64,000 bases of DNA from an uncultured virus (IMG/VR IMGVR_UViG_3300045006_000529) (taxonomy: Duplodnaviria; Heunggongvirae; Uroviricota; Caudoviricetes). Where the stretch lies: the IMG/VR virus record IMGVR_UViG_3300045006_000529, one strand, 5' to 3'. Under the pieces are notes generated by a model. That model had not been told where the DNA came from and did no database searches. It saw nothing but the letters and a program-made list of their open reading frames with translations. Shown here piece after piece: positions 620 through 54,242 of this stretch; position 1 is the stretch's first letter, and each line of letters begins with the position of its first letter. A program made the position numbers and the translations under genes.

Positions 620-1078
620 ATGATTCATCCTCTTCTTCTCAAGGCCTGCCAGGCCCATATAGAAGACAGGGGTATAATATGGAAGGCTGTCCCAGGTTCG
701 GAGAAAGACGAAGTACTTAAGTCCTTCCCACTACTCGCTTCTCCCGCAGCGAAGCGCTTAGCCCTATATCCTCCTCTGATTCTCATCACAGGTACGTATG
801 GCAGAAGATCTGTGGCAGAAGAGATGATTGCTGTCCATCCTGCTTTTCCCGCTTATTCACCGCCCCCTATACCTCTACCTGAGGGGAAGCTTTGGGTAAT
901 GCTGTTGGACACGTCGCGGGTGGTAATTGTACGCAGTTTGCCAAGCCTACAGGCCACAGCCGCCATTACGGGTTCTATTCCGGAATGTTATGGCTATACC
1001 CGGTCCCTCAGCGCCGGGGAACTCCACCTGGTCTCAGGGTTAGTGGCATCCGGGGTTTGGGACCTACTACAACTTTAG
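620..1078 (+). CDS. hypothetical protein with class-2 C-terminal tail (LVASGVWDLLQL*)
   Basis: Tail matches the G-[IV]-h-x-x-L-x-L* register of the 52.3-54.2 kb cluster. Confidence 0.6.
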   Translation: MIHPLLLKACQAHIEDRGIIWKAVPGSEKDEVLKSFPLLASPAAKRLALYPPLILITGTYGRRSVAEEMIAVHPAFPAYSPPPIPLPEGKLWVMLLDTSRVVIVRSLPSLQATAAITGSIPECYGYTRSLSAGELHLVSGLVASGVWDLLQL

Positions 1079-1092
1079 AAGGAATTTGTCCG

Positions 1093-2031
1093 ATGGACTC
1101 AGCACTAATCAACCCTTATAACCTCATTCTCAGGGCAGGTGGTACACCAGCAAGAGACTCCGACTCCGTTCAGGAGGTGATTGAAAAGGCTGGGCTGGAC
1201 TGGGATATATCTATTTCCCCAGTGGCCTACCTGAAGGAAGGAAACTGGGCTGTTCTGCCTGGGAGTCGGGCTATTATTCGGGGGGACACTGATGCCCCCC
1301 TAGGCCTGGTTGGCTCCCGCTACAGGCCCCTTAGCAACATGGAGGCCTTTCAGTTTCTCAACGACTTCATCCAGGATGGAACGATCCTCCTAAGAGGTGC
1401 CGGGTCTCTTAAGGGAGGGGTCAACGTCTGGCTGGTTGCTTCCCTTCCAAACCATGGGATTGTGGGAACCGATATAGTAGCCAACTGCCTTCTCTTCTGG
1501 AACTCCTTTGATGGGAAGTCCCGCCTGTCCATCCAGCTTGCACCCATCGACCCCAAGACAGGATGTTTATACACCACCCTTCCAGGAGACGTCCCCACGG
1601 TTCGCCGGATAACCCACTCGTCCAATATACTTGTGGGTCTTACCCAGGCACGTCAGGCACTTCAGGTAGCTAACCTGCGGATTCAAACGTTGGAGGAAGA
1701 GGTGTACAAACCACTTACCTCTACCTCCGCCACAGATGCAGATGTAGAGCAAGTCCTTTGCACAGCTCTTCCTGGCTCTGGTAAGGAGGTACTGTCCCAG
1801 AGGATGAAGAATGTACATCGGGTCATTGCTGAGATGATGGCAAGCAGCAGTAAAGGTCCTACTCCTTCCCTATGGGATCTATATAAAGCCGTCTGTCAGT
1901 ATGTAGACATCTCCCGTGGGGGGAAGGTCGATAAGCGCCTTGTTTCGGCCTGGCTGGGCCAGGGATATCAGATCAAGCAAGCGGCGCTGGCAACGGCTGT
2001 CTCTCTGGCCTCCACGAAGGAGGGCGAATGA
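1093..2031 (+). CDS. DUF932/DUF945-family phage/plasmid protein
   Basis: AGLDW..., LGLVGSRYRPLSNMEAF, GSLKGG..VW, LLFWNSFDG and ITHS motifs; start moved to ATG 1093 behind AAGGA. Confidence 0.8.
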   Translation: MDSALINPYNLILRAGGTPARDSDSVQEVIEKAGLDWDISISPVAYLKEGNWAVLPGSRAIIRGDTDAPLGLVGSRYRPLSNMEAFQFLNDFIQDGTILLRGAGSLKGGVNVWLVASLPNHGIVGTDIVANCLLFWNSFDGKSRLSIQLAPIDPKTGCLYTTLPGDVPTVRRITHSSNILVGLTQARQALQVANLRIQTLEEEVYKPLTSTSATDADVEQVLCTALPGSGKEVLSQRMKNVHRVIAEMMASSSKGPTPSLWDLYKAVCQYVDISRGGKVDKRLVSAWLGQGYQIKQAALATAVSLASTKEGE

Positions 2032-2657
2032 GGACAGCATTGCCTGACCTGCCTACCTTCACAAGGGTTAACAAGCTCTTCAAGATCCTGCTTCGGATAG
2101 GACCGAAGCACCGGAGTGCTTCCCCTCAGGATGTTATAGCTATAGGAATCACAGCAGACCCGGGCTCCAAGCCGGAAGAACAGATGTACGTCCTAGTTCC
2201 TCTCGGTAAGCCCCCTACATGTGGGGATAAGACCCGGCATGGCTTCCTGGATCTTATGAAGCACCAAGGGTTGGCTACCAATGTTCCTATATCATCCGTC
2301 TTTCCCCTACTGCCCCCATCAGAGGAGCTGACTGCCAAGCTAGCCTTCTCCCGGGAGCTTCTGGATATGGGCTACACTACCCTAGCATTTAATACTCCTG
2401 TACGCCCCACGGAGGCGCTTCAACTTCTCTCAGAGTTGTGTCCAGACAGCTGTTCAGGTTCGTTATACACTCTTCTTAGTGAAGATGCAGGTGTCGAACC
2501 GTCCTGGGCACTTGTGTTATCTGCTCTTGAGGAGCACAACTCCTGTCACAAGCTACCTGTTCTACGTGCGTTCAGACAACGTCTAGCAGGCACGGTTGAC
2601 AGAGTTAAGGCTAGACTAGCGGTTAGACGCTATCTCTCCAGAAAGGAGGAGAAGTGA
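2028..2657 (+). CDS. hypothetical protein
   Basis: 209-aa ORF coupled to both neighbours by 4-nt overlaps. Confidence 0.6.
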   Translation: MRTALPDLPTFTRVNKLFKILLRIGPKHRSASPQDVIAIGITADPGSKPEEQMYVLVPLGKPPTCGDKTRHGFLDLMKHQGLATNVPISSVFPLLPPSEELTAKLAFSRELLDMGYTTLAFNTPVRPTEALQLLSELCPDSCSGSLYTLLSEDAGVEPSWALVLSALEEHNSCHKLPVLRAFRQRLAGTVDRVKARLAVRRYLSRKEEK

Positions 2658-3447
2658 GTAAGCTTGTCTCCGTTGTTGACCTCCTGGTGGAGGTCGGAGC
2701 GTTCCCAAATCAGGAAGAAGCTGCCATAGCTATTTCCAAACACCAAGTTAGGCTACATGTAGCAGATAATGCTACAGGCGAAGTCCTAGGTTTGGACCGT
2801 GCTGCCAATAATCCTTATGATTTTAAGGTACTCGGTGGACAAAGGTATACATTCTTTGTCAAGAAGGGCAGCGTTTGGGAGAAGACTGCTACTGTTAAGC
2901 CATAGGAGCGCACTATGACCAAGGATAAAGGGGAAGCAAGACTTGACACTTTGCTAGATGTTATTAACGACGTCCTCCGGTCGGGAGGAGACGTCACGCT
3001 TACCGTCTATCACTTACATAGTGCAGACAAGCACAAATTATCGGACTATCTGAAGCGTAAAGCGGGAAAACGGGGATACCCCCCACAGGTTACCAAGGAA
3101 CTAGCGGATGGGTTTCTCGATGAAATTAGAGAGCCTTTGAGAGAGACAGGGCTACTTGGCACCCTTAGATTCCTCGGGCCTGACGGAACTACTGTAACCA
3201 AGGGAATATCAGTTTCCCTACCACCTGAGAGGAGTGTTCGATGAAGGTCACTAATGTGTATACTCTGACAAACAAGGGAGGACGAGGAACATTTGTTACT
3301 CACGGAGAAGTCCTGGAGATCGTGCGGCGCCGCCTCCGCGAAGGATGGACGTCGAAGGCTATTCGGGAGGCCTTTCCGTTTCTCCCCGGACAGTCAATTG
3401 CTGCCGTCAAGGCTCATCTTACGATGAAGTCGCAGGAGAACAGATGA
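2654..3447 (+). CDS. three small coupled hypothetical ORFs (2654-2905, 2915-3244, 3241-3447)
   Basis: Each has a GGAG-type RBS; two overlap the previous stop. Confidence 0.55.
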
Positions 3448-5926: not shown

Positions 5927-6391
5927 ATGACCTACTACACCTTTATGTGGGTGCCCGATGTTGAGGGGTCTGACACTCTCCTTCCGCTAACGCTGGCGGA
6001 GCTTCCCGGCTTGAGCGGTCGTGAGCGCCACGTTCACGCCTTCCAGTCAAGTCTGCCAGCCCTGGTAGTAGCTGCCACCAGTCGCACCGCCTCTCCCTAT
6101 GAGAGATACCACCTCAGTGGGTTAGGATATTTTTTCCCCTCACATTATTCCAATGTCTACGCCAGGTGGTACCCACATCCTACATTTATCGCCTGGGGAC
6201 AGTGGGCGGCTCGGAAGGATCCCTGGAGATGGATGGTGCTTGACAAGGGTATCAAGGTAGTGCGCACCCCTTTTCTGCTCAGCGCGCGAGTAAGCTCACC
6301 AAGGGACTTCCTCAGAAGCTTTCGCAGAGTAGGTGACATCCAGGGAATGGTTAACGCCGTGGAGGACTTTTGCAAAGTGTGCTTGCTCTGA
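5927..6391 (+). CDS. hypothetical protein, paralog of 6410-6871
   Basis: Shares YY..M..P..EG.D, TF..WG and RVS.P.DF.R.FR...G....[VI]ED with the next ORF. Confidence 0.65.
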   Translation: MTYYTFMWVPDVEGSDTLLPLTLAELPGLSGRERHVHAFQSSLPALVVAATSRTASPYERYHLSGLGYFFPSHYSNVYARWYPHPTFIAWGQWAARKDPWRWMVLDKGIKVVRTPFLLSARVSSPRDFLRSFRRVGDIQGMVNAVEDFCKVCLL

Positions 6392-6409
6392 AGCAGCTGA
6401 GATGGAAAG

Positions 6410-6871
6410 ATGGGTAGACAAAAGTTGTACTACGTCACCATGCTGTTCCCAAAGGAGGGTGAAGATTTTGTAGAAGTCCCTGGTATGACGCTGACATTTG
6501 AGAATGATAAGAGCAATGTACTTTACCCCTATTACATTTTCTCTACCTCTGGGGGGACACCTACGCCAGTAGTCGTAGTGCTAGGAAAAATACCTCCTCG
6601 CCAGCAAACGGTAGTAGAAGGGGTGGCCTACCTTAACCCCCGCGACAATACATTCTGTATGTGGGGGTACTCCCTTACCATTTGGCGTAGATTCAGGGGG
6701 AAATTCACATGCTCTAAGGTCTCAGTCAGCCGTAAGAGCTATGGTATTTATAGTCATAGGGAGCGTGTCAGGGTTAGCCAGCCCGAAGACTTCTCCCGGG
6801 TCTTCAGAGAGACACCCCTCAAAGGGGCAGCATCCTTCATTGAGGACATGTCTATTGCTCTGAAGATATAG
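6410..6871 (+). CDS. hypothetical protein, paralog of 5927-6391
   Basis: Same shared motifs; ends ...SIALKI*. Confidence 0.65.
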   Translation: MGRQKLYYVTMLFPKEGEDFVEVPGMTLTFENDKSNVLYPYYIFSTSGGTPTPVVVVLGKIPPRQQTVVEGVAYLNPRDNTFCMWGYSLTIWRRFRGKFTCSKVSVSRKSYGIYSHRERVRVSQPEDFSRVFRETPLKGAASFIEDMSIALKI

Positions 6872-8698: not shown

Positions 8699-8727
8699 AT
8701 TATAGGCACTGCAATGACGGAAAGCAA
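8699..8727 (-). promoter_or_regulatory. sigma70-type promoter for nrdJ
   Basis: On the - strand, TTGCTT (8727-8722), a 17-nt spacer, then TATAAT (8704-8699). Confidence 0.65.
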
Positions 8728-9205
8728 GTGGTATACTTGGTTTAGCGCAGGCCTGGTGCCAGTGATTGACGCCTCTACCCCCAGAAATCGGGAGGAGTAC
8801 CCCTTCCCCACACACAACTTGATAAAGCACCCGGAGGAAGGCAAAGCGCCACTTACTACCGTTGTATGCTTTTACCTTGGATATCTCCCACAGTGCTGCA
8901 GTTACTTCTTTCTCTTTTACTTCGATAGTTTTCCCTTTCACATAGTATGCCGGAGTGACAGCAGCCTGCCGGAATGCTCAGGTGTCTTCTATACTTCCGT
9001 TGACCTGCCCTCCCTGCTTTTTGAAGGGAGGGCCTCATATGAGGAGACAGAGGACATCCTACCCTACTCTCAGGGCAACGGGGACTTCCCTGTGACTACA
9101 CCCATGCGTAGGTGGCCCCCACCTAAGAGGTATCTGATCTCCATGATTCATTCCCTGGTGTCTCCTAACATACTACGAAGCCTGATGCAGGCGGCTAAAC
9201 TATGA
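8714..9205 (+). CDS. hypothetical protein with degenerate class-1 tail (IHSLVSPNILRSLMQAAKL*)
   Basis: Size and terminal register match the class-1 family; ATGA-coupled to the next ORF; start uncertain. Confidence 0.5.
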   Translation: MTESKWYTWFSAGLVPVIDASTPRNREEYPFPTHNLIKHPEEGKAPLTTVVCFYLGYLPQCCSYFFLFYFDSFPFHIVCRSDSSLPECSGVFYTSVDLPSLLFEGRASYEETEDILPYSQGNGDFPVTTPMRRWPPPKRYLISMIHSLVSPNILRSLMQAAKL

Positions 9206-9771
9206 GGCAGCTTGACTGTCTGACCCCCTTCTGTCTCTGTCTGGAGACAGAGACTATGGCAGTGGTTGACCTGAGCAGAGAGAAAAAACTCTCCTCTTTG
9301 GTACGGTCTGGCGAGATGTCTCCTCTTTTACAGGAGCAGAGCATCACACGTAAACCCACAGACACGGCGTTTTATCTGGGGTACATAGAATGGTGTGCAA
9401 GCCACATCTTCCTTACCTCCCTTTTCACCCCCCACCCTTCCTATTCATTCCGCTTTCTCCCCTCATCCCCCGAAGAGATAGGAATTTTGAGGGTATGCTG
9501 TGATTCAGGTGGCAAAGTCGAGTGGTGGGAGTGGCACTTCATGCAGACAGGCTATTTTCTCGATGCGAAAGGGGTCGGTCCCCGGGATATGAGGATGCTA
9601 AGGCGTTGCATGAAGGAGGACCCGTCTCTACGTCTAACTTACATAGGCAGCTGGCTTCCCCACATGTGGGGAAGATACAAATCTCCGACGCAGAGTTGTT
9701 CGCTGTCCCTCGCCCGTTCCCTGGTTCCGGTGCAAGAGCTTGAGGGTGTCATTGCTACACTTCGCTTGTAG
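9202..9771 (+). CDS. hypothetical protein with degenerate class-1 tail (ARSLVPVQELEGVIATLRL*)
   Basis: 189-aa ORF; terminal amphipathic helix ending in L. Confidence 0.55.
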   Translation: MRQLDCLTPFCLCLETETMAVVDLSREKKLSSLVRSGEMSPLLQEQSITRKPTDTAFYLGYIEWCASHIFLTSLFTPHPSYSFRFLPSSPEEIGILRVCCDSGGKVEWWEWHFMQTGYFLDAKGVGPRDMRMLRRCMKEDPSLRLTYIGSWLPHMWGRYKSPTQSCSLSLARSLVPVQELEGVIATLRL

Positions 9772-12540: not shown

Positions 12541-13815
12541 ATGGGAAAGACCGTCACTACGGTAGCCACGCTGTCTCACGCCGAGCTGCGGAGGGCGATG
12601 AGAGTTGCTTATGCCACCAAAGCCCCTGCGTTTATCTCAGGGAGGCTTGGCATTGGCAAATCAATGGAGATCCTGCGGCTGTCTGAGGAGCTTGCCGCCT
12701 CTCAGGGGCGGAAGTTTCTCAACTGGAATGCTGTTTCCCTCCCGGAGAAGCGGGAAGCGACCACAAGCCCAGGGAAGTTCTTCATATTCGCCGACGATAG
12801 ATTCTCCCAGAAAGATACGGTAGATCTGAAAGGGCTCCCCGCATTCAACGAGGGGGATGCCGTAGTCTGGAAGCCCAACCTCTTGGTGCTTGCCCTTTCG
12901 CACCCTGACTCAGCCGGGATCTGGTTTCTGGATGAACTCAACCTGGCTCCGCCGACAGTGCAAGCGGCAGCCTATCAGGTAATCCATGACCGTCAGGTGG
13001 GCGAATATGCCTTAGGCCCTGGTGTATATGTCTGCGCGGCCGGTAATACACACCAGGACCGGGCCAATGTATTCCACTTGCCAGCCCCGCTGGCTAACAG
13101 ATTCGTCCACTTCGAGCTTGCCGTTCCCAACATCGAGAGATGGCAGGAATGGGCAATTCCTCAAGATGTACCCCCGCAGATCATCTCCTTCCTCAGCTGG
13201 AGGCCTTCTCTTCTATTCTCATTTGACTCCTCTACTTCAGAGAGCGCCTTTCCCACTCCCAGATCTTGGGCACGGGCTGGCACTCTGATTCAGGATGTCC
13301 TAAGGAACAGTACGAGAGAAACACCGGATTTCGACTTTCTTTACATTCTCACAGCGTGTGCCGTAGGGTCCGGAGCAGCGAGCGAGTTTATCTCCTTTCT
13401 CAGAACGCGGGAGAGTCTGGATCTCATTTCGTTCCTCAAGGATCCGGAGAAGCTTTCTTCTCTTGGAGACCACGTAGACAGGAAGTGGGCAGCTGTGACC
13501 GGCCTGGCCGAACTGTACCGGGCCAATCGCTCCCGCGACAAGGAGGGAGGGACGGCCAGAGAATGTTCACCCGACCGGGAAGACCTGGTGAGAACCGGTC
13601 GGGGGAAGAAAAAGAGGGAGGGCAGCCGCGAAGACGCAGTCGAGCTGGCAACACTTGACGCGATTTTCAAAGCCGCATGCCACCTGGATGGAGAGTTTGC
13701 GGTTCTGCTCGGCAGACTCGCACGCCAGGTGGACCGTGCTTACTTCCTGGCCACAGTGTTAAGTCTCCCCTCCTACGAGGACTTCAAGAACCGGTTCGTG
13801 CACTTGTGGAGCTAA
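12541..13815 (+). CDS. MoxR-like AAA+ ATPase
   Basis: GRLGIGKS Walker A, DLKGLP, FLDELN Walker B, AAGN, PLANRF.H and FPTPRSW. Confidence 0.88.
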   Translation: MGKTVTTVATLSHAELRRAMRVAYATKAPAFISGRLGIGKSMEILRLSEELAASQGRKFLNWNAVSLPEKREATTSPGKFFIFADDRFSQKDTVDLKGLPAFNEGDAVVWKPNLLVLALSHPDSAGIWFLDELNLAPPTVQAAAYQVIHDRQVGEYALGPGVYVCAAGNTHQDRANVFHLPAPLANRFVHFELAVPNIERWQEWAIPQDVPPQIISFLSWRPSLLFSFDSSTSESAFPTPRSWARAGTLIQDVLRNSTRETPDFDFLYILTACAVGSGAASEFISFLRTRESLDLISFLKDPEKLSSLGDHVDRKWAAVTGLAELYRANRSRDKEGGTARECSPDREDLVRTGRGKKKREGSREDAVELATLDAIFKAACHLDGEFAVLLGRLARQVDRAYFLATVLSLPSYEDFKNRFVHLWS

Positions 13816-13817
13816 CT

Positions 13818-15227
13818 ATGGCCAAGAGTCCTAGCAAAAAAGATATTGAGAAGGACGCCAAGTGGGAGGCTCTTGTCAGAGAGGCTTCTGAGAAGATCCT
13901 GAGGGAGAAGATTCTTCTTCAGCACGAGGAATCGGGGGTACCCTTCTTGTACGCCCTGATATCCAAGCTGAAGTTGAGACCTATTTCCCAAGAGGAGTGG
14001 GACCGCATTGCCGCCAAGGGCAAGAGGGCCGCTCAGAGGGCCACGGCCAGTATCGACCCTAGGGGTAATTTGTTATGGAGTCCAGAATATATAACGGGTC
14101 TCTCAAGCCAAGAAGTCCGAGGTGTGTTAGCCCACGAAGCCCTACATGTCGCCCTTCTCCACCTGCTGCGCTGTGGCGGGCGGGACATGGATATGTGGAA
14201 CACAGCCATTGACATAGTGGTAAATACAGCTGTTGCATCGATGTCGCTCAGGGACGCTTCTCAGTCTCCCCGCCTCCCGGAGGGAGGACTAATTCCCCAA
14301 CACTCCAGCGACAAGGGGTGGACGATCAAGATTCCTCTTTCCGAGGATAAGAAGGGGCCTTGTATTGTCCTAGAACAACTTGAGGCAAAGAGTGCAGAGC
14401 ACATATATGAGGAGCTCCAGAACCAAGCCTCCCAGAAAGGAGGGGGTGGCGGGGGTAGGCCTAAGCTCGTCTTCCGAGGACACGACCTTCACCAGAACGG
14501 TAATTCAGTCGATCCAGAGACAGGAGAAAGCACACCGATAGACCAGTCTACGTCCGACCGGCTAGCCAACGAATGGAGGCGGAATCTAGCCGAGGCAGCA
14601 CAGGTTCATAAGACGACAACCCGGGGGACACTCCCGGGGACGCTAGAGCAGCTTTTCGAAGAGGTACTCCGTGACCGAACGGACTGGAGGAGCGTCCTTT
14701 ACCGCTTTATCACACAACACCTTCCGTCAGACTTCACCTGGTCCCGACCGTCGAAGAAGTCCCTTGCTTTGGATACCTACTTCCCGCTGGTCATAAGAGA
14801 GGGAATCGAAGGCATAGTGGCTATTGACACCTCAGGTTCCATGAGTGACGAGCTTGTTGCCATTTGCATCGGGGAGGTCCAGAGCATTCTTAGATCCTTT
14901 ACCAACATCTCCATCAGGGTAATTACTTGCGACGCCAAAGTTCAGGACTGCTTTGAGCTAACTGGTGAAGATGCTCCTGTCATCTCTCGGAAGATTACTA
15001 TCCGAGGGAGGGGCGGCACGAGCCATGTTCCAGTAGCCAAGTACATCAAGAAGCACTTCCCTCATACCAAGTTTATTCTCTGTTTGACGGATCTAGCTAC
15101 TGAGTTCCCCGAAAAGGAGGACAAAGTAGGCAGCTGGATCTGGGCTGCCCCTAGGGGGTGTCAAGAGTATATGTCAGATGTGCCAGACTCTCTGGCAGAT
15201 GACTTCTTTGTATGGCTCGAAGAGTAG
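13818..15227 (+). CDS. DUF2201-type metallopeptidase + vWA domain protein
   Basis: HEALH (HExxH), WN.A.D..VN, DTSGSM MIDAS, GRGGT and LTD; typical partner of the upstream MoxR ATPase; ATG 13818. Confidence 0.85.
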   Translation: MAKSPSKKDIEKDAKWEALVREASEKILREKILLQHEESGVPFLYALISKLKLRPISQEEWDRIAAKGKRAAQRATASIDPRGNLLWSPEYITGLSSQEVRGVLAHEALHVALLHLLRCGGRDMDMWNTAIDIVVNTAVASMSLRDASQSPRLPEGGLIPQHSSDKGWTIKIPLSEDKKGPCIVLEQLEAKSAEHIYEELQNQASQKGGGGGGRPKLVFRGHDLHQNGNSVDPETGESTPIDQSTSDRLANEWRRNLAEAAQVHKTTTRGTLPGTLEQLFEEVLRDRTDWRSVLYRFITQHLPSDFTWSRPSKKSLALDTYFPLVIREGIEGIVAIDTSGSMSDELVAICIGEVQSILRSFTNISIRVITCDAKVQDCFELTGEDAPVISRKITIRGRGGTSHVPVAKYIKKHFPHTKFILCLTDLATEFPEKEDKVGSWIWAAPRGCQEYMSDVPDSLADDFFVWLEE

Positions 15228-15556
15228 CGAATTCTACAGGCTCGTCGGCAACATGGACACTTGTGTCTGGTGTCCACCTCGCCAAGGGTTTTCTTTACAT
15301 CGTCGGGTCTACAGACGAAGAAAACTGCTACTTTCCCCTCCGCCTTGTGGTATCACCCTCCAAAGTTACCAAAAGGGAAGCCAAGAAGACAGGAGACCTC
15401 TGCACGACGTGCAAGGTCTGCCTTCTCAACTTTCCGAGCTGTCGGCTCTCACGAGGCTCTCGTTGGATCCTTGATTCACCCCCTGACTTAAGCGAAATAG
15501 CCCCTTTCCTGAGCCCTGACGATGTTATTCGGATCCGTACCCTTCTACAGCTGTGA
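15212..15556 (+). CDS. class-1 tail protein (IAPFLSPDDVIRIRTLLQL*)
   Basis: 19-aa stop-anchored tail; first of a 6-gene array. Confidence 0.55.
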   Translation: MARRVANSTGSSATWTLVSGVHLAKGFLYIVGSTDEENCYFPLRLVVSPSKVTKREAKKTGDLCTTCKVCLLNFPSCRLSRGSRWILDSPPDLSEIAPFLSPDDVIRIRTLLQL

Positions 15557-15819
15557 GGTGTAAGCAGTTGGCCTCGTGGGTTCCAATCCTTGAGACTAGG
15601 GACAACTTTTTTGTCTACCTTGTCACGCTCGAAGACGGACGGGAAGCATTAGCGTTAAGCAGAGGTATTCCTGAAAGCACGGGCAGGACTGTTTACATAC
15701 CAGCCATCAGGGTTGCCGACTTTGTCTCAGGGGGGACAGAGGGAATGTTCTCGAAACCCTTCATGGACTTCCTTGTTCCAGAAGAGGTCTCTAGTCTGAG
15801 ACCCCTCCTGACCTTGTGA
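15553..15819 (+). CDS. class-1 tail protein (FMDFLVPEEVSSLRPLLTL*)
   Basis: Tail register; GTGA overlaps. Confidence 0.6.
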   Translation: MRCKQLASWVPILETRDNFFVYLVTLEDGREALALSRGIPESTGRTVYIPAIRVADFVSGGTEGMFSKPFMDFLVPEEVSSLRPLLTL

Positions 15820-16220
15820 TGCTGGAGCTACCTTTGGGGCCATACAAGTGGACATGGATACCCCTTCTGAAACTTCCAGACACGGAGGAGACGCTCTATC
15901 TCGCATTCCGTCAGGAAGTGGCATCCAAGACAGGAAGAGAGTGTGACGACCCCCTTGCTCTCATCCTCCTTCTGAAAGACGCTCATGCCCAGGCTCTTCT
16001 TGGCAAAGACGCACGCAACGTTGTCCTTAGCAACCACAACGAGGATAGGGGATCTGCCCTGAAGTGGTCTTACTGTTACTACTTTGCCTCATATCCCAGG
16101 TGGGAGAAGTATACACCACCAGACAATTACGGCAGCGGAAGCTTCAGCAAATACAGAGAGCTGGCTGACTACCTGGGGCCCGCAATCGTAAGAGATGTAG
16201 CTGCCCTCCTTAAGCTGTAA
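15816..16220 (+). CDS. class-1 tail protein (LADYLGPAIVRDVAALLKL*)
   Basis: Tail register; W.WIPL motif shared with the following paralogs. Confidence 0.65.
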   Translation: MMLELPLGPYKWTWIPLLKLPDTEETLYLAFRQEVASKTGRECDDPLALILLLKDAHAQALLGKDARNVVLSNHNEDRGSALKWSYCYYFASYPRWEKYTPPDNYGSGSFSKYRELADYLGPAIVRDVAALLKL

Positions 16221-16231
16221 ATGGAGCATTT

Positions 16232-16678: not shown

Positions 16679-16696
16679 GCAAGGAGCCCAACTGGC

Positions 16697-17107: not shown

Positions 17108-17123
17108 GCCCTGCTACCCCCCC

Positions 17124-37433: not shown

Positions 37434-39455
37434 ATGCAATTCTCCAAGTTCAAAGCCGCTGTACAGAGGCGTCTCGCTATGATGAAAGACCTACCTCTTT
37501 TCTGCGTGGCAGTTGACAAGGACGCTTTGTGGGCCCTCTATCTAGCTTCGTTCCCTGAAGGGTCCAACCCTATGTTCCGCCAGAGGACCGAACATGACTG
37601 CAGTTGCTGCCGCCAGTTTATTAAGACCACTGGGAGCATGGTCGCTGTCTCGGACGGAAAGATTATCAGCCTGTTCGATGTCGAGGTGGAAGGACCCTAT
37701 CAAGTAGTGGCAGATGCTATGGCGGATTTTGTTAAAAAGCATCCAATAAGCAACATCTTTCTGCACTATGCGAGTGGGATAGGGACAACAAAGAACTTTG
37801 AGGAAACCGAAGGAAATGTGAGAACCTGGGAGCATTTTCACATCCAGCTCCCAAGTAGTGCTGTTGTTCCTAAGATTGGTATCGGACCCCGGTTATCAGA
37901 GGCCAAAGCGTCCCATGACGTGCTCCTGCGCTCCCTTACGGAGATTACCCCTGAGGCTGTGGATACTGTGTTGGAGATAATCGAGCAAGGGAGTCTCTAT
38001 AGGGGGGAGGAAAAGAAGGCAGTTGTTACCTCCTTTCGCGATTTGCAGAGGCGCTTTGTCCGACTGAAGACCGAGCAGGATAGAGACATCTTCGCTTGGG
38101 TACACAGTCAGGATTCCTCCGCATTCGTCGCCCGGATCAGAAACGACGTTATCGGCACCCTGCTCACAGACATCTCAGAGGGTCTGGAGCTGGAGTCCGC
38201 CGTCAAGAGGTTCGAGGACAAGGTCGCACCTACAAACTATAAGCGAACGAGTGCCCTAATTACGCCTCGGATGAAGGAGCAGGCGAAGGAAAAGCTGAAG
38301 GAGCTGGGTCTCATCCCCGCCCTGGAGCGACGGTACGCAACACTTAGGGATATTAGTGTTGAGAACCTGCTCTTCGCCGACCGTAATGCGAGACGCACAG
38401 TTTCGGAAGATGTGTTTGATAACCTGCCCACCAAGGGGGCTGATGCACGCCTCCTGGATAAGGTGGAGGAGATCGGGGTTGATGCATTCCTAACCCAAGT
38501 CCTCCCCAAGGCGAAGACGGTCGAAGTTCTGTTCGAGAACCGGCAGACGAGCAACCTTGTGACCCTGGTGACAGCCGTAGATGCTTCGGCTCCCCTGCTG
38601 TTTAAGTGGAACAACCAATTCTCCTGGTCTTATAACGGAGATGTGGCAGATTCTCTGGCCCGTGGCCGTGTGAAACAGGCCGGGGGAAACGTAGACGGAG
38701 ATGTGTGTTGCCGCTTAGCCTGGTACAACACAGACGACCAAGACCTTCACATGCGTGAACCTGGTGGATCCCATATTTCTTACGTCATGTACCGTCGCAC
38801 AGAGTCTCCCTGCGGTGGCATGTTGGACGTAGATGCCAATGGCTGTGATGGTATAAGACCCGATCCGGTAGAAAATATCGTTTACGCAGACCGGAACAGG
38901 ATGAAGGTGGGCACGTATACACTCAGCGTCCACCAATATAGCAAGAGGCAGGGCAAGGACGAAGGGTTTGAGGCCGAGATTGACGTAATGGGGACTGTTT
39001 ACCACTTCACCTATAGCCAGCCTTTACGCCATGGTGAGACAAAGGAAATAGCCCGCATCATTGTTGCCCGGGACAGGACCATTACAGTCGAGCCAGTACT
39101 TTCTTCGTCTCAGTCAGTCAAGGAGGTCTGGGGCCTCAAGACGCAGACATTCCATGCGGTCCAGGCTATCATGCTTTCTCCCAACTTCTGGTCGGGTCAA
39201 GGCACCGGCAATAGGCACTTCTTCTTCATGATTGACGGCTGTAAGAACCCAGGGTCGGCTCGTGGGTTCTACAACGAGTTCTTGAGAAGCGAACTGGAGC
39301 CACACCGTAAGACGATGGAGATCGTCGGTAGCAAAATGAGAACTGAGAACGAGGGAGAGCAGCTTAGCGGTCTTGGCTTCTCTTCCACACAGCGGAACTA
39401 CGTACTATGTCGGGTAAAGGGAGCTTTTACTCGCACTGTTAAGGTAATGTTCTAG
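37434..39455 (+). CDS. large conserved-looking phage protein of unknown function
   Basis: 673 aa; HDCSCCRQFI, SLYRGEE, KVAP.NYKR, FKW.N.FSW.YNG, D.DLH..EP.G..I, GG.LDVD.N and LSGLGFSST. Confidence 0.75.
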   Translation: MQFSKFKAAVQRRLAMMKDLPLFCVAVDKDALWALYLASFPEGSNPMFRQRTEHDCSCCRQFIKTTGSMVAVSDGKIISLFDVEVEGPYQVVADAMADFVKKHPISNIFLHYASGIGTTKNFEETEGNVRTWEHFHIQLPSSAVVPKIGIGPRLSEAKASHDVLLRSLTEITPEAVDTVLEIIEQGSLYRGEEKKAVVTSFRDLQRRFVRLKTEQDRDIFAWVHSQDSSAFVARIRNDVIGTLLTDISEGLELESAVKRFEDKVAPTNYKRTSALITPRMKEQAKEKLKELGLIPALERRYATLRDISVENLLFADRNARRTVSEDVFDNLPTKGADARLLDKVEEIGVDAFLTQVLPKAKTVEVLFENRQTSNLVTLVTAVDASAPLLFKWNNQFSWSYNGDVADSLARGRVKQAGGNVDGDVCCRLAWYNTDDQDLHMREPGGSHISYVMYRRTESPCGGMLDVDANGCDGIRPDPVENIVYADRNRMKVGTYTLSVHQYSKRQGKDEGFEAEIDVMGTVYHFTYSQPLRHGETKEIARIIVARDRTITVEPVLSSSQSVKEVWGLKTQTFHAVQAIMLSPNFWSGQGTGNRHFFFMIDGCKNPGSARGFYNEFLRSELEPHRKTMEIVGSKMRTENEGEQLSGLGFSSTQRNYVLCRVKGAFTRTVKVMF

Positions 39456-39477
39456 AAATCTAGCAAAGGAGAGAACA

Positions 39478-39876
39478 GTGGACAAGTTTGAAGAGGCGGC
39501 ACGGAAAAAGCTTCGGTTTCGGACTAAGATAGGGGATTTGATGGTCGAAGACCTATTTGATCTCCCTCTCACGTCCACAACAGGGAAGCCTAACCTGGAC
39601 GCAATTGCGATTGCTCTGAATGAGGACCTGCAGAAAGCTGGTGTGAAGTCCTTCGTTTCCGACAAGACACTGGCGGACGAGACCCTACAGTTAGCATTTG
39701 ACATCGTTCGACATGTCATTGAGGTCAAGAAGACCGAGAATGCTGCAGCCCTTCAGAAGAAAGTTGTTGCCGAGAAGAAGCGGCGTATCTTGGAACTGTT
39801 GGCGAAAAAAGAGGACGAAGCTCTAGCGTCGAAGTCGGAAGACGAGCTGAAGACCCTGTTGTCCGAACTGGACTAG
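39478..39876 (+). CDS. coiled-coil partner of the upstream protein
   Basis: FE.A.R.KLRF.T..G.L.VEDLFDLPL motif; AAGGAG RBS. Confidence 0.75.
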   Translation: MDKFEEAARKKLRFRTKIGDLMVEDLFDLPLTSTTGKPNLDAIAIALNEDLQKAGVKSFVSDKTLADETLQLAFDIVRHVIEVKKTENAAALQKKVVAEKKRRILELLAKKEDEALASKSEDELKTLLSELD

Positions 39877-46921: not shown

Positions 46922-47200
46922 TTGTTCAAGAAGTTTGAGTGCGACTACTGTGGGAAAGAGTACGAAGTAACAGACGAAGATCCGGCCCTGAAGTTAGAGG
47001 CACTCTGGGCCAAGTTCCTCGTCCCCAATATGAATTCCGAGCTGCATGAAGCAGTCAGGAGGATAATTTGCAAAGGGGGAGACTTCTGTTCCTTCAATTG
47101 CCTAGGCAGGCATATATTAGGAGAGCTAGCCTCCAATGAAATTGTTTCCGGGCTTAATGCCGAAGCCCTACGGGCCATCCTGTCAGCAATTGACCTGTAG
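46922..47200 (+). CDS. zinc-finger protein
   Basis: CDYCG...DFCS..CL. Confidence 0.55.
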   Translation: MFKKFECDYCGKEYEVTDEDPALKLEALWAKFLVPNMNSELHEAVRRIICKGGDFCSFNCLGRHILGELASNEIVSGLNAEALRAILSAIDL

Positions 47201-47926: not shown

Positions 47927-48370
47927 ATGCAAATGAAAAGTCCTGCGCCTCCGCTCCTGCCCCTTCCCTGGTGGGAGGACCAACGCCCTACCTTAGGGTG
48001 CTGCTATCTAGCCTCTCCCTATCGCAACCCTTTTCATCTGAGGCCTCTTAGGATCAGAGGACATCAGCTGCTCGTCACTGAACTGTCAAGACATGGAATT
48101 TCCGCAGTTTCCCCTGTACTGCAGCTAGCCCACCTTGACGGATTGGTATCCGAAGACGCCATTCTGGGCCTGTGCTTGAGCATACTCCATAGGTGCGATA
48201 TTCTGCTCCTTATGCCGGGGTGGAGAAGGTCAGAAGGAGCAATGTGCGAATACAAGGCAGCTCTAGCCGTTGGCAAGCCTATTGTAGATATGGAAGATGC
48301 TCGTCTTTTAGCCGATCCGAGGTGGGGGGGGATAATCTCCGAAATTTCCAACCTTTGGGAGGTAAATTGA
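47927..48370 (+). CDS. DUF1937/DUF4406-like nucleoside 2-deoxyribosyltransferase-fold protein
   Basis: YLASPY, SP and CD.L..MPGW..SEGA..E...A...GKP. Confidence 0.75.
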   Translation: MQMKSPAPPLLPLPWWEDQRPTLGCCYLASPYRNPFHLRPLRIRGHQLLVTELSRHGISAVSPVLQLAHLDGLVSEDAILGLCLSILHRCDILLLMPGWRRSEGAMCEYKAALAVGKPIVDMEDARLLADPRWGGIISEISNLWEVN

Positions 48371-48993
48371 CACTGATTGCTGGATACTTTGATAGCAGCA
48401 AGAAGCTCGGCTATCTCGCCGTCGATTCTTCATGTAGCGGCATATCTGGCCTCTCCAGCCCTCTCGCAGATCCTGGTGAGAAGGTTTGGATTGGCAAGGG
48501 GTTTATTATTGGGGCAACCGGCCTTGTCAGGACCTGGCAAGTAATCCAAGGTATCTTGGAGAACGTGTGTTCCCGAAAGGGGACAAAGGGCCTCCTCTCT
48601 ACTGAGAAGGGTATCAAGCAGTGGGCCCGCGTCCTTCCGCAGGCTCTTGGTGCCCACCTTGTCTCCGGTGCTACTTCTCCAGAGGATGGGGCGGCCGTTT
48701 TCCCTATCGCCATGTTGGTGCTTAACAAAGAGGGGGTGTTTGTAATTGACAACTCCCTTAGTGTCCTGAAGAGCAGGGAAGGATATGGTACTATCGGAGC
48801 AGGAGGCGATGTCTGTATGGGGGCCTTCAAGGCTCTTTTACACACAGGTTTCCAGGAAAACGCCCCCGCTGCCAAGCTGGAGCTAGCAGCACAGATCGCG
48901 ATTGCACATACCCAGGAGACCAGCTTGCCCCTTCGCATCTATAGGCTAAACGCAAGAACTGGCTCGGTTACTACCACCCCCCCACTCAGCTAG
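48367..48993 (+). CDS. HslV/proteasome-beta-like Ntn hydrolase
   Basis: TTG 48367 behind GGAGGT gives M-T-L-I-A-G (N-terminal Thr); A.DS, K, IG..G..R..Q, IGAGG...GA and L..A...A. Confidence 0.7.
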   Translation: MTLIAGYFDSSKKLGYLAVDSSCSGISGLSSPLADPGEKVWIGKGFIIGATGLVRTWQVIQGILENVCSRKGTKGLLSTEKGIKQWARVLPQALGAHLVSGATSPEDGAAVFPIAMLVLNKEGVFVIDNSLSVLKSREGYGTIGAGGDVCMGAFKALLHTGFQENAPAAKLELAAQIAIAHTQETSLPLRIYRLNARTGSVTTTPPLS

Positions 48994-49478: not shown

Positions 49479-52316
49479 ATGAGTAAGACAGGTGTCAAGA
49501 AGAGTGAAATGTCTCCCTCTACATGGGAGGCTCTCGAAAGCTACAAGACATCCAATAAGGCAGACTACAACTGCATAGTTATTGTGCCCTCGATGGAATG
49601 GAGGGGACACAAAAACTGTTGTCTCGCCGCCTTCTACAAAGACAAGTGGCCTAGGTTCATTTGCTTCAGGGTACTATCCCAACCGCTACCTAGGATGGCC
49701 CGACCTTCTGGATTTGGAAAGGCAAAGTGGGCCTTGGTGGATTTTATCAACCTTGACCTCTCTGGCGAAAGACCTACATCTTGGATAGGAAGAATAGCAC
49801 ATGACCCAACTGGTCCTTTTTACGACCTGATAGTCAAGAATCGTTACGATGCACCTTTCCTTCTATAGGGGAGATAGAAGATGGAACCTAAGTATAAGCT
49901 GCCCACCAGATGGATCAGGTTTCTACAGCAGCAGCCTGAGTCCTCTATGGGATTTCAAAAGGTTGCCGTAACGTTGGCCAGTGGAAGGGTTATACATGGC
50001 TGCCTAGTAGAAGACGGGTCCTTGTTGCTTCTCCCTGAAGGGGCGTTCATACCAGCTACTGAAGGCTCAATTGTTAACATGGTGGTGGAGGACAACAGTT
50101 GAAGACAAGGATCAAGCCAAGGCAGGCCGTTATAACGCTGGAGCTGTTCTTTGACCTCGACCAGATTACTTATGGGAAGGCTGAGCATCAAGTCCGGCAG
50201 GCAATTGCATTAATCAATAGCACATTACAGCGAGAACCATACGGGCTGGCCGCCCAACTGGGCGAGGAATGGTCCGGTCTCATAATCCACGATACGGAAG
50301 AAGAGTGAGAGAAGGGGTTGTAGATGAGCTGCTACACGCGGTGGATAGGTGTAATTGTGCTTCCGGAGGACATCAGTCCTGCCCTCGAAGTCCTGGTTGA
50401 CAAAGCCCTCACGGGCATACCTGGAGAGAACCTGAATAGGACGCTGAGTGGGAACAGAACGCTAAGCAAGCCCGGAGGCCGAGGCAGAGATCTCCATATC
50501 AATTGCGGAGGAGTTTTATCTAACTCCTCCGCAACTCTCATCTTCTCCCTTCTAGAAGATATCGGTAAGTTGTGCAATGAGGCCTCCGTGATTAGTGTAG
50601 AAACTGGTGAAGATGGGGGTCCACAATTCTGGACTGTAGGCCCCTCCGAAGAAGCAAAAGCATCTGCCTTTAGCAAGCACGTCAGGAACGAGATTGAAGG
50701 CCTCCTTCCTTCCCTAGTAGACGAGGACCTGTATGCAGTTCTTGTAAAGGCAAATGCAATGCTCATGAAAAAGCAGGCTCAGCAGGTCAACCCTCAGGAG
50801 GACCAGGTGAAAAGAGGTAAAAAGCCAGTAGCTGAGAAGAGGTACTGGTGACTCGTGGGTTACGCAGGTGGGCCAGGGCACGCAGGGCACTATTTCGAGT
50901 GGTTCTACGGTACCAGAAAAGAAGCTAGGGAGGATGCTGATGTTTGGATCTGCTGTGAAGACCCTTATCTTGATGACCCAGTCACGGTCCAGTTTAAGCG
51001 CTTCGATGTACTACCAAGTTGGCTTCTTGGCCAGAAAGTCCGTGACTACATATACCGGATGGAAGGATGTAGTCGTGGGCTAGAACAGCTGGGGTCTTTG
51101 CCACCCCGCCTGAAGCGCCTTTTGCAAGACCTGCGACAGATAACAGATAGCCTCCACCCTGTACCCCATGGCTCCCGCGATTTCTGCAAGCGCTGTAGTG
51201 GTGAGGGAAGCATAGTGGTCGCTCGAAGAAAACGCGGTGCTCCAACAAAGTACCGCATCTGCCCCGATTGCCAAGGTGAGGGATGGGCCTATCATGACTG
51301 ACTTCCTTGGGTATGTAACAAGCGAATATATTACGGAAAGAAGGCGTCCTCGAAATGGTCCCTTCCTTGACATCGATGCTCTCAAGAGTGAGATCGAGAA
51401 AGCGTTCTACTTCTGGGGAGACGTCCAAGTTCACTTCGGAGACTTGGACAGTGGAGGGGAGGCCTTTTCCTTTGATGGATACGACCACCCTGATGTCAGG
51501 CACTTTCCCCACGGAAAACCCTTCGACTACGACCCCCTCGAAGATCCTAACGGCTACGGGAACAGTGGGTTTTATGAGTTCTTGGAGTGTTTGTCGAGAC
51601 ATCTTATCCCCGATGCCCACATAATCATTTACTACATTGGCAACGAGGGTCTCCGACCCCCCCTGTGTGGGATGTCCTGGTGGATTTACCGCGACCACAT
51701 TGATGAAATAGACATCTCTAGCAGAGCCGGGGTCCAAAGGATTTGGGAGAAGCAGAAGACATGACGCCCCTCAAGGTTGAGATGCAGACCCACTGCCCAA
51801 GCTGTGGCATTGAGGTATATGGTCCGGCTGTATACAAGTTCAGCTATGGGGAGGTTCCGTGTCCCCTTTGCGGGGGATATTCTGAGCCAATGGATACCAG
51901 CCAGTACTGTCAAGTTATGAAGCTGTTGAGGGAAAAGGAGGATGCCAAGCATGGGCATGACGACTAAGTTACCTTTCGCAGGCGACTGTGTATTTACTAT
52001 AAAGGTAGACAAGGAAGGCAAGGCAGGAATAATATCTTCCCACGGCCTAAGGGGTGACAAGGAGGACTTCATCTGGAATTTTGGGGCAGACGTTTTGGAG
52101 TCTTTCGTCCTAGCTCTTGCTTGTGCTAGCTATGATCTGGATGAGCGCTTGGAAGGTGTTATCGACACAGTAATAGATGCTATGTCCAGCAGTGTGGAGG
52201 ACTATCGCAAGCCCCTCCGGAGCATGTCGAGGAGACATCAGAGACGGACCAAGGCCCTTCTTGAGGCCTTAGCACAGGCATCTGCACTCTCCGAAAGTTG
52301 CGATAAGGACGCTTAA
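49479..52316 (+). CDS. run of about 8 small hypothetical ORFs (49479-49868, 49881-50102, 50099-50308, 50324-50851, 50855-51301, ~51294-51764, ~51761-51967, 51942-52316)
   Basis: Tightly coupled ORFs; two contain CxxC pairs. Confidence 0.55.
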
Positions 52317-52319
52317 CTC

Positions 52320-52649
52320 ATGACACGAGAGCAAGCAGAGGCCCTCCTCTCAGACCTGAATGCTCCCGAGAGTGTTGTCGTTTCTACAGCATGGCCTACG
52401 CCCGAGAGTGACATGTGTCTGGTAGCTATCCCCCTCTGTGACAGCCGCATCCTCCTCCGCACTCTTGATAGGAGAGGAGGGGCAACTTTCCACGCAGTCT
52501 ACGATCTAGTAAAGGACAAAATCAGAGGATGCAATATAAACATTGTCAAACTGAGATCTTTCTGTGACATACCTATCGAACGGCATCCCTGGAGGGAAGC
52601 ATACAACCTGTTGGATAAGACCGGGATCATCAGTTTGCTAAAACTGTGA
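52320..52649 (+). CDS. class-2 tail protein, subtype a (LDKTGIISLLKL*)
   Basis: EQA.A.L and V.S.AWP....CL.AI shared with 53066-53392. Confidence 0.7.
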   Translation: MTREQAEALLSDLNAPESVVVSTAWPTPESDMCLVAIPLCDSRILLRTLDRRGGATFHAVYDLVKDKIRGCNINIVKLRSFCDIPIERHPWREAYNLLDKTGIISLLKL

Positions 52650-53065
52650 CAGAGAAACACATATCTGATATGACGTGCGAAGAAGCCAATGAAGCCTTTC
52701 GCCTTTTCAAGGCGATTATTCTTGAGGAAATACACACAGTTGTTAGCGGATGCGTCTTGCTTACAGACGCATCGCCTCTAGTAGTCTCCTTGCATCACAA
52801 GCTCCCTACTTATGTTCCCCCCTCTAAGCTGAACAAAGAATGTTGCTTGGTAGTATCGGGGGCGAACTTCCCTTCGCTTTCCAGCTTCGATCTCGATATT
52901 ATCGACCCCTACGGGACCCCCCTCATAGGATCCTCCTCTTTCTCATTTGTGAGGAAGGTCATGGGCGAAGCTCTCAATACCCCTGCCTTTTCGGACGCAA
53001 GATCTGCGAAAGTAGTTGAAGAGATTCTGCGCGCCAGAGGCATTCTTGCCACACTGGAACTTTAG
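52646..53065 (+). CDS. class-2 tail protein, subtype b (LRARGILATLEL*)
   Basis: MT..EA..A..LF...IL, G.VLL.DAS, CLV and D...P.G.P shared with 53408-53803. Confidence 0.7.
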   Translation: MTEKHISDMTCEEANEAFRLFKAIILEEIHTVVSGCVLLTDASPLVVSLHHKLPTYVPPSKLNKECCLVVSGANFPSLSSFDLDIIDPYGTPLIGSSSFSFVRKVMGEALNTPAFSDARSAKVVEEILRARGILATLEL

Positions 53066-53392
53066 GTGAGATTCGTGTCTCCCGAACAAGCCAACGCAGC
53101 GCTTCTCGAATATAAACAGCAGCTCCTCCAGCTTACTCCAGCGCAGGAGTCATCCCCTACATGTATAGTTATGTCTCCTGCCTGGCCTAAGGGAACAAGT
53201 AGAACCTGCCTTGCTGCGATTATGTACCCCAGCCTCGAAGGGATCTTCCTTTGTAGGTTGACCCCCGAGGGAACAGCTGAGGGAAGTGCATATTGCATCA
53301 GGCATGTAAATGGATGGCAGGTACTGGTGGGTGGTCTGGAGATGCGTAAGCACATCAAGGAAACAGGAGTTCTCAGCGTTTTCGCTCTTTAA
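53066..53392 (+). CDS. class-2 tail protein, subtype a (IKETGVLSVFAL*)
   Basis: Paralog of 52320-52649. Confidence 0.7.
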   Translation: MRFVSPEQANAALLEYKQQLLQLTPAQESSPTCIVMSPAWPKGTSRTCLAAIMYPSLEGIFLCRLTPEGTAEGSAYCIRHVNGWQVLVGGLEMRKHIKETGVLSVFAL

Positions 53393-53407
53393 GGACAACT
53401 GGTAAGC

Positions 53408-53803
53408 ATGACACAGCACGAAGCGGAACGGGCCCTTTCCCTGTTCATAGATGAGATTCTTGCCAGGCGGATTATGTCATCCTGCAAGGGGGCAGTGCTA
53501 CTAGCAGATGCGAGTGTCCTGGCCTCCTGGATGGCCTCTTCCTTAGGTCTTGTATCCCCACAAAAAGGCATTGGGGGGAACCTATGTCTAGTCGCGACGT
53601 TTGACCATGAAGCGCCCACTATATCGACCAGGTATTACATCGACCTTCTCTTGCCCGATGGAAGCCCCTGGAAGTCCGCCCTTGACTCAGGCCTTATCAG
53701 CATAGCAGGGGACTCCATTGGCTCCGTCCTCCCCCCTCATCTTAAACACTCCCTCTTTGACAAGCTGCGTGAGTTGGGAATTCTCTCCCTGTTGCGGCTC
53801 TGA
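53408..53803 (+). CDS. class-2 tail protein, subtype b (LRELGILSLLRL*)
   Basis: Paralog of 52646-53065. Confidence 0.7.
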   Translation: MTQHEAERALSLFIDEILARRIMSSCKGAVLLADASVLASWMASSLGLVSPQKGIGGNLCLVATFDHEAPTISTRYYIDLLLPDGSPWKSALDSGLISIAGDSIGSVLPPHLKHSLFDKLRELGILSLLRL

Positions 53804-53804
53804 T

Positions 53805-54242
53805 ATGAACAGCGACAAAAAAGAACTAGAGCAGCGTGCTATAGACACAATCCGAAGATTTCTGAGGGGAGATTGCTGGCCCCTTACACTGAAAGATGGC
53901 GCCTTCATATTTTTGTACGGGGGAAGGTGCTCAGACGATACCGAGGATTTTTTCTCCGAGGGGAAGACCCGCCCCAATTACTCGTCACACGCTGTTCTTG
54001 TAGTTCCTAAAGAAGAGTGTCAAATCCTCTTCGTTGCTGCGATAGTAAGGATATTTCCTAAAAGATGTCATAGAATGGCCCCCCGTGTACGGTATAGAAT
54101 TGTACATCGCACTCCCAGTGGGGATTCCCTAGCAGGGGCACTTCTTCATAGGTCTCCCTTTGGCATGGACTACCATTTTGAGGAGATATTTAGAAAGGCC
54201 GTCCTGAATGACGGGAGACTAGTTAGCCTCTTGTCTCTGTGA
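53805..54242 (+). CDS. class-2-like tail protein (LNDGRLVSLLSL*)
   Basis: ATG 53805 immediately after the previous stop; terminal SLLSL. Confidence 0.65.
   Translation: MNSDKKELEQRAIDTIRRFLRGDCWPLTLKDGAFIFLYGGRCSDDTEDFFSEGKTRPNYSSHAVLVVPKEECQILFVAAIVRIFPKRCHRMAPRVRYRIVHRTPSGDSLAGALLHRSPFGMDYHFEEIFRKAVLNDGRLVSLLSL

Follow-up and report, generated by a model that had tools for sequence, protein, structure and literature searches.

The 64,000-nucleotide stretch analyzed here from the uncultured virus IMGVR_UViG_3300045006_000529 (the window) encodes arrays of small proteins that nearly all end in leucine, which raises the question of whether their C-termini are read by another protein or are simply the conserved part of the respective folds. 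A first-pass annotation of the window had described 33 such proteins in eight stretches and had proposed that variable bodies are combined with constant tails, whose free C-terminus would plug into one shared partner. The window belongs to a large, phage-like orphan contig. About one third of the genes in the window encode small proteins with a hydrophobic, Leu-ended tail, which form a few rapidly evolving families.

Leucine ends of the small proteins

All 33 small open reading frames (ORFs) were present on the plus strand in the eight stretches (Table 1) and, as had been stated, the last residue is Leu in all but two: 31 proteins end in Leu, and 6410-6871 (...LKI) and 34663-35106 (...EEI) end in Ile. 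A lack of enrichment of terminal Leu over the other genes had been named as one of two outcomes that would refute the proposal, but the residue was enriched, with 31/33 candidates ending in Leu compared to 5/76 other ORFs from a crude codon-score gene call. This call kept 101 ORFs, including 25 of the 33 candidates, and the remaining eight were dropped for low score or overlap; gene 620-1078 was not retained by it. In long proteins the share of Leu is 10.3%. The Fisher test gave p = 1e-19, a value that is inflated by paralogy among the candidates. The most conservative grouping, with four unrelated groups that all end in Leu, gave p values of 2e-5 to 1e-4, which are biased towards the optimistic side because the families had been picked by their ends.

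The conservation is anchored at the stop codon and lies at the protein level, in agreement with the earlier description. The final columns of the class alignments were free of gaps over 17 (class 3), 18 (class 1) and 12 (class 2) positions, compared to 58-86% gap-holding columns in the same alignments overall, and no extended or truncated end was found among the 33 diverged copies. The ending pattern common to the groups is hydrophobic-x-x-Leu-COOH, and the hydrophobicity of the tail tips was 0.16 versus -0.10 for other C-termini. The last six residues, VSLLSL, are identical in the class-1 gene 17124-17558 and the class-2 gene 53805-54242, where the Ser codons belong to different blocks (TCC and AGC, respectively).

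The tail codons could also be kept by a constraint on the nucleic acid, either as ribosome-binding site or coupling signal for the next gene or as a recombination repeat. GGAG indeed occurs inside the codon of Glu -3 (counted from the last residue, -1) in four genes that are closely followed by the next start (21113, 22580, 23056 and 35430), at a fitting distance from it. However, a Shine-Dalgarno-like motif in the last four codons plus stop was present in only 8/33 genes, the distance to the next start varies from -37 to +161 over the arrays, conserved residues are encoded by four to six synonymous codons, all three stops (TAA, TAG and TGA) are used, and the conservation extends over 12-18 codons. 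The codon spread and the motif and gap counts largely refute this explanation, which we consider highly improbable; overlap with the ribosome-binding site of the next gene does not account for the tails.

Families behind the common ending

At least four sequence-unrelated groups have been tandemly expanded in the replication arm of the phage. They amount to 33 genes and one remnant, to which three additional genes with a Leu end can be added. BLAST placed the small proteins in clusters of 11, 6 (plus 1), 3 and 2 genes, and by sequence the groups appear to be tandem paralogs, homologous within each group and confined to this lineage. A search of 5.8 billion clusters with class 3 and class 1 returned only proteins of the contig itself. 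The class sizes of the first-pass annotation needed partial revision: class 3 has 11 genes and a remnant as listed, class 1 has 13 clear genes instead of 14 and class 2 five instead of six. Pfam-A contained no family that matched any of the 33 proteins (hmmscan, E ≤ 0.01), which agrees with the statement that no named family matches and gives no support to the proposed likeness to poxvirus ankyrin/F-box proteins.

Class 3 is one Cys4 family, its members being alike over their full length. The layout consists of an N-terminal helix and a beta-hairpin (L-x-S-G-H-x-I-V), followed by C-S-x-x-C-P and C-x-L, with C85, C99, C121 and E129 being invariant and the last invariant Cys lying 11 residues before the end. 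In the tail, Arg -15 (6 codons), Cys -11 and Glu -3 were present in 11/11 genes and Leu -1 (6 codons) in 10/11, and Gly-Gly precedes the terminal V-E-x-L. The remnant is real and represents a truncated copy. The structure model of class 3 was poor (predicted local distance difference test, pLDDT, 66), and a fold search with this poor model gave a best Z of 4.1.

A class-3 profile searched against 1.84 billion representatives matched 17 proteins at E ≤ 0.001. Nine of these are short (91-131 aa, E ≤ 3e-13); P0001, P0002, P0003, P0005, P0006 and P0009 are the window's own and the rest of the nine are assumed to be so as well. Two are long Cys-rich repeat proteins, and six (P0012-P0017, 64-141 aa) are distant outside relatives, with whose addition the end of the class-3 alignment turns ragged. 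In P0014-P0017 the Cys module is present as far as C-x-E-A-T, after which these proteins stop two to four residues earlier, with polar ends of ragged length, and only P0013, encoded on a separate contig of 17,634 bp, keeps an A-E-C-L end; Gly-Gly-V-E-x-L is therefore a lineage-specific addition. The class-3 proteins gave at most one match (E 0.6) by tblastn against 50,697 phage records. The ESM Atlas provided no usable lead for the small proteins.

P0012 contains two tandem class-3 Cys modules in 141 aa. It is encoded at 6001-6426 of a contig from a Nanoarchaeia metagenome-assembled genome, in a neighborhood of small, AT-rich ORFs that looks viral; no functional context was found at this locus. 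The Zn-ribbon-like gene 46922-47200 matched a class-3 gene by BLAST at a non-significant E of 0.46.

Class 1 is made up of two subfamilies, A with 3 genes and B with 6, and of four singletons. The terminal Leu is present in 13/13 genes (5 codons) and a Gly at -14 in 10/13 (GGA, GGC, GGT and GGG). Between the subfamilies and three of the singletons the tails share ∼25% identity in a fixed register, compared to 7 ± 6% for internal windows. The bodies alone gave no significant profile match, apart from a 12-column F-L-T-x-x-E stretch at E 0.07, and there was no cross-detection between the subfamilies with body profiles. The strongest full-length profile matches between class-1 subfamilies were end-anchored tails (P 0.015 for A versus B, and P 0.052 for B versus the singletons). 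Subfamily B by itself is an ordinary family that is alike over its full length.

An AlphaFold model of gene 20725-21120 (subfamily B) reached a pLDDT of 81.9 and a predicted template modeling score (pTM) of 0.74. In this model three strands, a helix, a strand and further helices are followed by two terminal helices (107-118 and 120-131, pLDDT 91-93), with the class-1 Gly at the turn between them. The class-1 tail is thus predicted to be a structured helical hairpin that extends to residue 131 of 132, not a floppy plug, and the pTM suggests that the hairpin is part of one compact unit. Foldseek found no match to the model in the PDB at E ≤ 0.001 and none in BFVD. A wide VIA-align comparison gave a best Z of 3.6 and likewise no convincing fold; PH-like and PUR/PC4/Whirly entries scored 2.4-3.1, among them StWhy2 (Z 3.0, root-mean-square deviation 3.4, 87 aligned residues) and PBF-2 (Z 2.8), all below the trust level of the tool. 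A derivation of class 1 from Whirly proteins found no support in profile comparisons: hhalign to the window's own Whirly protein gave nothing, and twelve class-1 proteins compared to Pfam at E ≤ 10 gave a single weak, unrelated match.

The 156-aa product of gene 25965-26435 combines a DnaJ-type N-terminal zinc motif (CxxCxGxG) with a 56-residue stretch of 34% identity to the class-1 B gene 20725 and, near the end, with a helix-G-I-V-x-I-I stretch that resembles class 2 and runs into a basic extension; both likenesses are of weak significance. Kinship to subfamily B was rejected, as it comes down to one pairwise match in a tiny database and the body profile misses the gene.

Class 2 aligns over its length and is one ordinary family as well. 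The related gene 49479-49868, which has a different end, gave a weak BLAST match (E 0.27) to 53066-53392. Where one extra related pair had been described, two loose pairs were found, in 5927-6871 and 8714-9771.

Structural tails or a terminal recognition element

The most likely reading, which we hold tentatively, is that a terminal recognition element sits on top of family-specific structured tails. Each family would have its own structured tail: class 1 a hairpin of the form helix-Gly-helix, and class 3 a helix that its invariant Cys -11 connects to a putative metal site. The phage lineage would in addition select for a free hydrophobic-x-x-Leu-COOH tip. One or a few machines would recognize this short terminal element, and the small proteins would be clients or adaptors with fast-evolving, variable bodies. 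Selection on the free end is favored because at least four unrelated groups converge on the same ending, because the 33 diverged copies include no ragged end, because class 3 gained V-E-x-L in this lineage, because a class-1 and a class-2 gene share VSLLSL with Ser codons from different blocks, and because the terminal Leu is enriched, the tips are hydrophobic and the arrays adjoin AAA-type machines.

This reading remains close to one in which the tails are purely structural, which is quite possible. Here the small proteins would be fast-diverging, tandem-duplicated paralogs whose C-terminal helices are the best-conserved part of the core or of a self-association surface, with Leu as a core or cap residue and a free end that is not read. 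Such tails would fit the confident helix-turn-helix of the compact class-1 B model, the full-length homology inside class 3, class 2 and class 1-B, the modest contrast between tails and bodies and the lack of likeness between the tails of different classes; end-anchored tails as best matches between the class-1 subfamilies would be expected of one old family. However, purely structural tails leave unexplained why at least four groups without detectable kinship all stop at Leu (p about 1e-4 or less), why no copy was extended or truncated, and why class 3 gained a V-E-x-L that is missing in its outside relatives.

Several observations weigh against a terminal recognition element. Conservation inside the families is just modestly higher in the tail than in the body (tail/body identity 0.50/0.42 for subfamily A, 0.37/0.29 for subfamily B, 0.40/0.28 for class 3 and 0.20/0.20 for class 2), and in the two loose pairs the tail is less conserved than the body (0.15 versus 0.30 for 5927/6410, and 0.25 versus 0.32 for 8714/9202). 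The second of these pairs has a Pro at -13/-14, like the class-1 singletons. Tail profiles did not find the tails of any other class, and within class 1 the profile of one subfamily did not find the others. The combination of a constant tail with dissimilar bodies therefore applies weakly and inside class 1 only, while class 3, class 2 and class 1-B are each ordinary families. By sequence the three tail classes resemble each other only in hydrophobic-x-x-Leu, and because there is no further resemblance, a single shared partner for the free C-terminus, as first proposed, is not indicated. An amphipathic-helix signature was rejected: over the last 12 residues, the helical hydrophobic moment is at background level (0.29 for both). 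A packed core helix had been named as an outcome that would speak against docking tails, and the last 25 residues of class 1 partly conform to it, being two confident helices of a compact model; since these extend to residue 131 of 132, the tip may be packed instead of free. PA5oct, the one cultured phage that was checked, has a homologous ATPase/VWA pair whose neighbors share no ends. Finally, if all of the families descend from one very old superfamily, their separation as unrelated groups may be finer than warranted.

Candidate readers next to the arrays

Under the tentatively preferred reading of a terminal recognition element, the best candidates for a reader would be the phage's ATP-driven proteins that adjoin the arrays. 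One candidate is the MoxR-like ATPase with its VWA-metallopeptidase: the first class-1 gene (15212) begins inside the 3' end of the peptidase gene, which itself follows the ATPase gene. The second candidate would be the classical AAA+ protein, which has a class-3 array on either side. This protein matched p97, VAT, AFG2 and PAN in the PDB (E 5e-10 to 3e-6) and, weakly, Pfam AAA and AAA_lid_3; no docking motif was recognized at its C-terminus. The HslV-like peptidase might possibly be a reader as well. Its best PDB matches were HslV (E 0.005-0.11), with no match in Pfam. Directly after the start of this protein there is a possible N-terminal Thr.

The strongest form of this idea would be a genome-wide C-terminal address code, with the tip on ∼36 fast-evolving small proteins of unrelated folds being read by a phage ATP-driven machine (the MoxR/VWA-metallopeptidase pair or the AAA+ protein amid the class-3 genes, with a possible hand-over to the HslV-like peptidase) and the proteins acting as exchangeable adaptors or clients that deliver a range of host targets to this machine. 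We regard this as rather unlikely.

Non-polar C-terminal ends destabilize bacterial cytoplasmic proteins, and the tips could be degrons for a timed removal of early proteins, either by a host protease (ClpXP, ClpAP, FtsH or Lon type) or by AAA+ and HslV-like proteins that the phage itself encodes. The non-polar last residues fit, and the phage has an AAA+ protein of the classical clade as well as an HslV-like candidate. Nevertheless, the class-1 tail is predicted to be helical up to its end, the tips are by eye unlike the ...LAA end of ssrA-type tags, and a degron gives no reason for a class-specific conservation of 15-20 residues. We consider degradation signals an improbable explanation.

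Genes around the arrays

The arrays and the genes named in the text are compiled in Table 1. Genes lie on the plus strand up to 54242 and on the minus strand past this position. The G+C content of the window is ∼52% and no tRNA genes were found in it. The window holds a phage-type replication arm with a DUF932 protein, ribonucleotide reductase, RecA, uracil-DNA glycosylase, exonuclease and primase-helicase, together with the ATPase/peptidase pair, a two-piece DnaE, a Whirly-type protein, the classical AAA+ protein and the weak HslV-like candidate.

Table 1. Features of the window (endings are those directly before the stop codon).
Feature	Position	Strand	Remarks
Class-1-like singleton, 152 aa	620-1078	+	ends ...GVWDLLQL; stop-anchored match to the class-1 tail profile, E 5e-4
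Whirly-type single-stranded DNA (ssDNA)-binding protein, 152 aa	4908-5366	+	ends ...RPSLVSL; Pfam Whirly PF08536 E 4.4e-11; PDB WHY2 E 2e-4
Loose pair	5927-6391, 6410-6871	+	ends ...KVCLL and ...IALKI; weak mutual BLAST match, E 0.007
Loose pair	8714-9205, 9202-9771	+	ends ...MQAAKL and ...IATLRL
MoxR-like AAA ATPase	12541-13815	+	forms a pair with the VWA gene; PHROG 1297 E 3e-62
DUF2201 metallopeptidase/VWA	13677-15227	+	PHROG 1314 E 2e-68; Pfam DUF2201_N E 9e-29, DUF2201 E 2e-16
Class-1 array	15212-17558	+	three singletons, then subfamily A
Class-1 singletons	15212-15556, 15553-15819, 15816-16220	+	ends LLQL, LLTL, LLKL
Class-1 subfamily A	16232-16678, 16697-17107, 17124-17558	+	all three end LLSL
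DnaE (Pol III alpha), N-terminal piece, 710 aa	18224-20356	+	Pfam PHP, DNA_pol3_alpha, finger 6-95
Class-1 subfamily B array, six genes	20725-23505	+	between the two DnaE pieces
Class-1 subfamily B genes	20725-21123, 21113-21520, 21520-22080, 22114-22563, 22580-23053, 23056-23505	+
DnaE, C-terminal piece, 408 aa	23505-24731	+	Pfam finger 102-165, HHH_6, OB
Class-3 array I	30420-32301	+	30420-30815, 30977-31252, 31207(31258)-31578, 31605-31958, 31978-32301 and the remnant
Class-3 remnant	30785-30943	+	truncated copy, ends ...RCVACQRATAEIETL
Classical-clade AAA+, 414 aa	32891-34135	+	one AAA module, ∼210-400; flanked by two class-3 arrays
Class-3 array II	34132-36020	+	34132-34473, 34457(34496)-34789, 34663(34789)-35106, 35061-35420, 35430-35708, 35709-36020
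Zn-ribbon-like protein, 92 aa	46922-47200	+	CSxxC-like motif; class-1-like helical end ...LRAILSAIDL; outside the earlier list
Divergent HslV-like peptidase candidate	48367-48993	+	PHROG 1040 E 7e-6
Class-2 body relative	49479-49868	+	ends ...YDAPFLL; aligned with class 2; Leu-ended, outside the earlier list
Class-2 array	52320-54242	+	ends G-[IV]-[IL]-S-L-L-x-L
Class-2 genes	52320-52649, 52646-53065, 53066-53392, 53408-53803, 53718(53805)-54242	+

DnaE is split in the fingers domain, and its pieces align to residues 6-655 and 674-1058 of E. coli alpha. The six class-1 B genes, preceded by a 124-aa ORF (20358-20732), take up the 3.1-kb gap between them, and there is no room for split-intein halves at the split.

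The Whirly-type protein, a Leu-ended protein outside the earlier list, is probably the phage's ssDNA-binding protein, to judge from its domain matches. No homologues were found in the 5.8 billion clusters, and none in the phage records by tblastn. Its tip was rejected as a model for the tails, because the likeness covers five residues only; this stretch may belong to the Whirly fold.

Clamp-binding C-termini are found on T4 gp43, gp33 and gp55, and bacterial ones have the form QL[SD]LF. By eye, the tails lack the Gln and the aromatic residues of such motifs. Library scans found no sliding-clamp family among the window proteins, with the contig running 12 kb past the window.

Close relatives of the window were absent from the phage records (megablast with 20 kb of the window), and only the 673-aa protein 37434-39455 is close to known phages. 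Loci in IMG/VR were retrieved with this protein (54% identity) and with RecA (best 38% identity), and none with the C-terminal DnaE piece; the five loci L019-L023 held no relatives of any small-protein family or tail (all E > 0.01). The 673-aa protein matches PHROG 1735 over its full length (E 5e-262), is 50% identical to a protein of phiCbK-like Caulobacter phages and occurs in 550 phage records. It is directly followed by a 132-aa protein (PHROG 2018), and neither has a Pfam match; the two genes (37434-39876) are a widespread, unnamed conserved pair.

The minus-strand cluster (54251-64000) comprises several methyltransferase-like genes and genes for a triple glycosyltransferase of 1027 aa, a protein resembling heptosyltransferases, a cupin and an actin (60671-61771) of the volactin type (Pfam E 1e-62); volactin is a family described from archaea. 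Between 14000 and 33999, terminator-like hairpins were about twice as frequent as in shuffled sequence (38 versus 17.6 ± 4.6), many of them on the non-coding strand. A scan for sigma-70 promoters remained at chance level.

Comparison with known systems

Large phages encode many small early proteins of unknown function. Should the tip be a common address for a phage-encoded ATPase or peptidase, a single testable system of tag, reader and variable heads would bring order to dozens of orphan genes and provide a handle for finding the host targets of the small proteins. If the tails are only a conserved core, they are a warning that stop-anchored C-terminal conservation in tandem arrays alone is no proof of a docking tag. 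A word search of the literature found no description of Leu-ended small-protein arrays, which does not prove their absence.

As in the poxvirus ankyrin/PRANC families, a viral multigene family has diverging bodies and a better-kept C-terminal element. In contrast to these, the host of the virus is prokaryotic, ankyrin, F-box and PRANC domains are absent, and the element comprises 6-20 residues instead of a domain of ∼60 residues. The internal proteins of T4 share a capsid-targeting sequence that is N-terminal and cleaved. They resemble the present proteins as small, variable phage proteins with one constant short address peptide, but here the constant part is C-terminal and the window contains no head genes.

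Bacillus phage G has a lineage-specific expansion of a zinc-ribbon family of ∼35 copies (PMC7824862). Both phages have dozens of small, lineage-restricted paralogs with one Cys-rich, zinc-type family, whereas here several unrelated families have a stop-anchored Leu end, and the single tblastn match at E 0.6 provides no sequence link. In jumbo phages, the MoxR AAA+/vWA-metallopeptidase pair has been proposed to be a chaperone for virion assembly and processing (PMC7824862). The same MoxR-like and DUF2201 peptidase/VWA genes stand directly upstream of the class-1 array, while the passages of PMC7824862 on the pair do not link it to tail-tagged small proteins. Phage-borne proteasome homologues without a known AAA+ partner, as well as the partnership of HslU and HslV, have been described (PMC8665760).

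C-terminal docking peptides that plug into AAA+ or peptidase rings are the tail of SspB on ClpX, that of HslU in HslV and the HbYX tails on the proteasome. In the window, phage AAA+ proteins and an HslV-like candidate lie beside or near the arrays. The window differs from these in having three tail classes instead of one and a class-1 tail that is predicted to be helical and structured; it resembles them in that the proteins finish with a few hydrophobic residues and a free carboxylate, in a register set by the stop.

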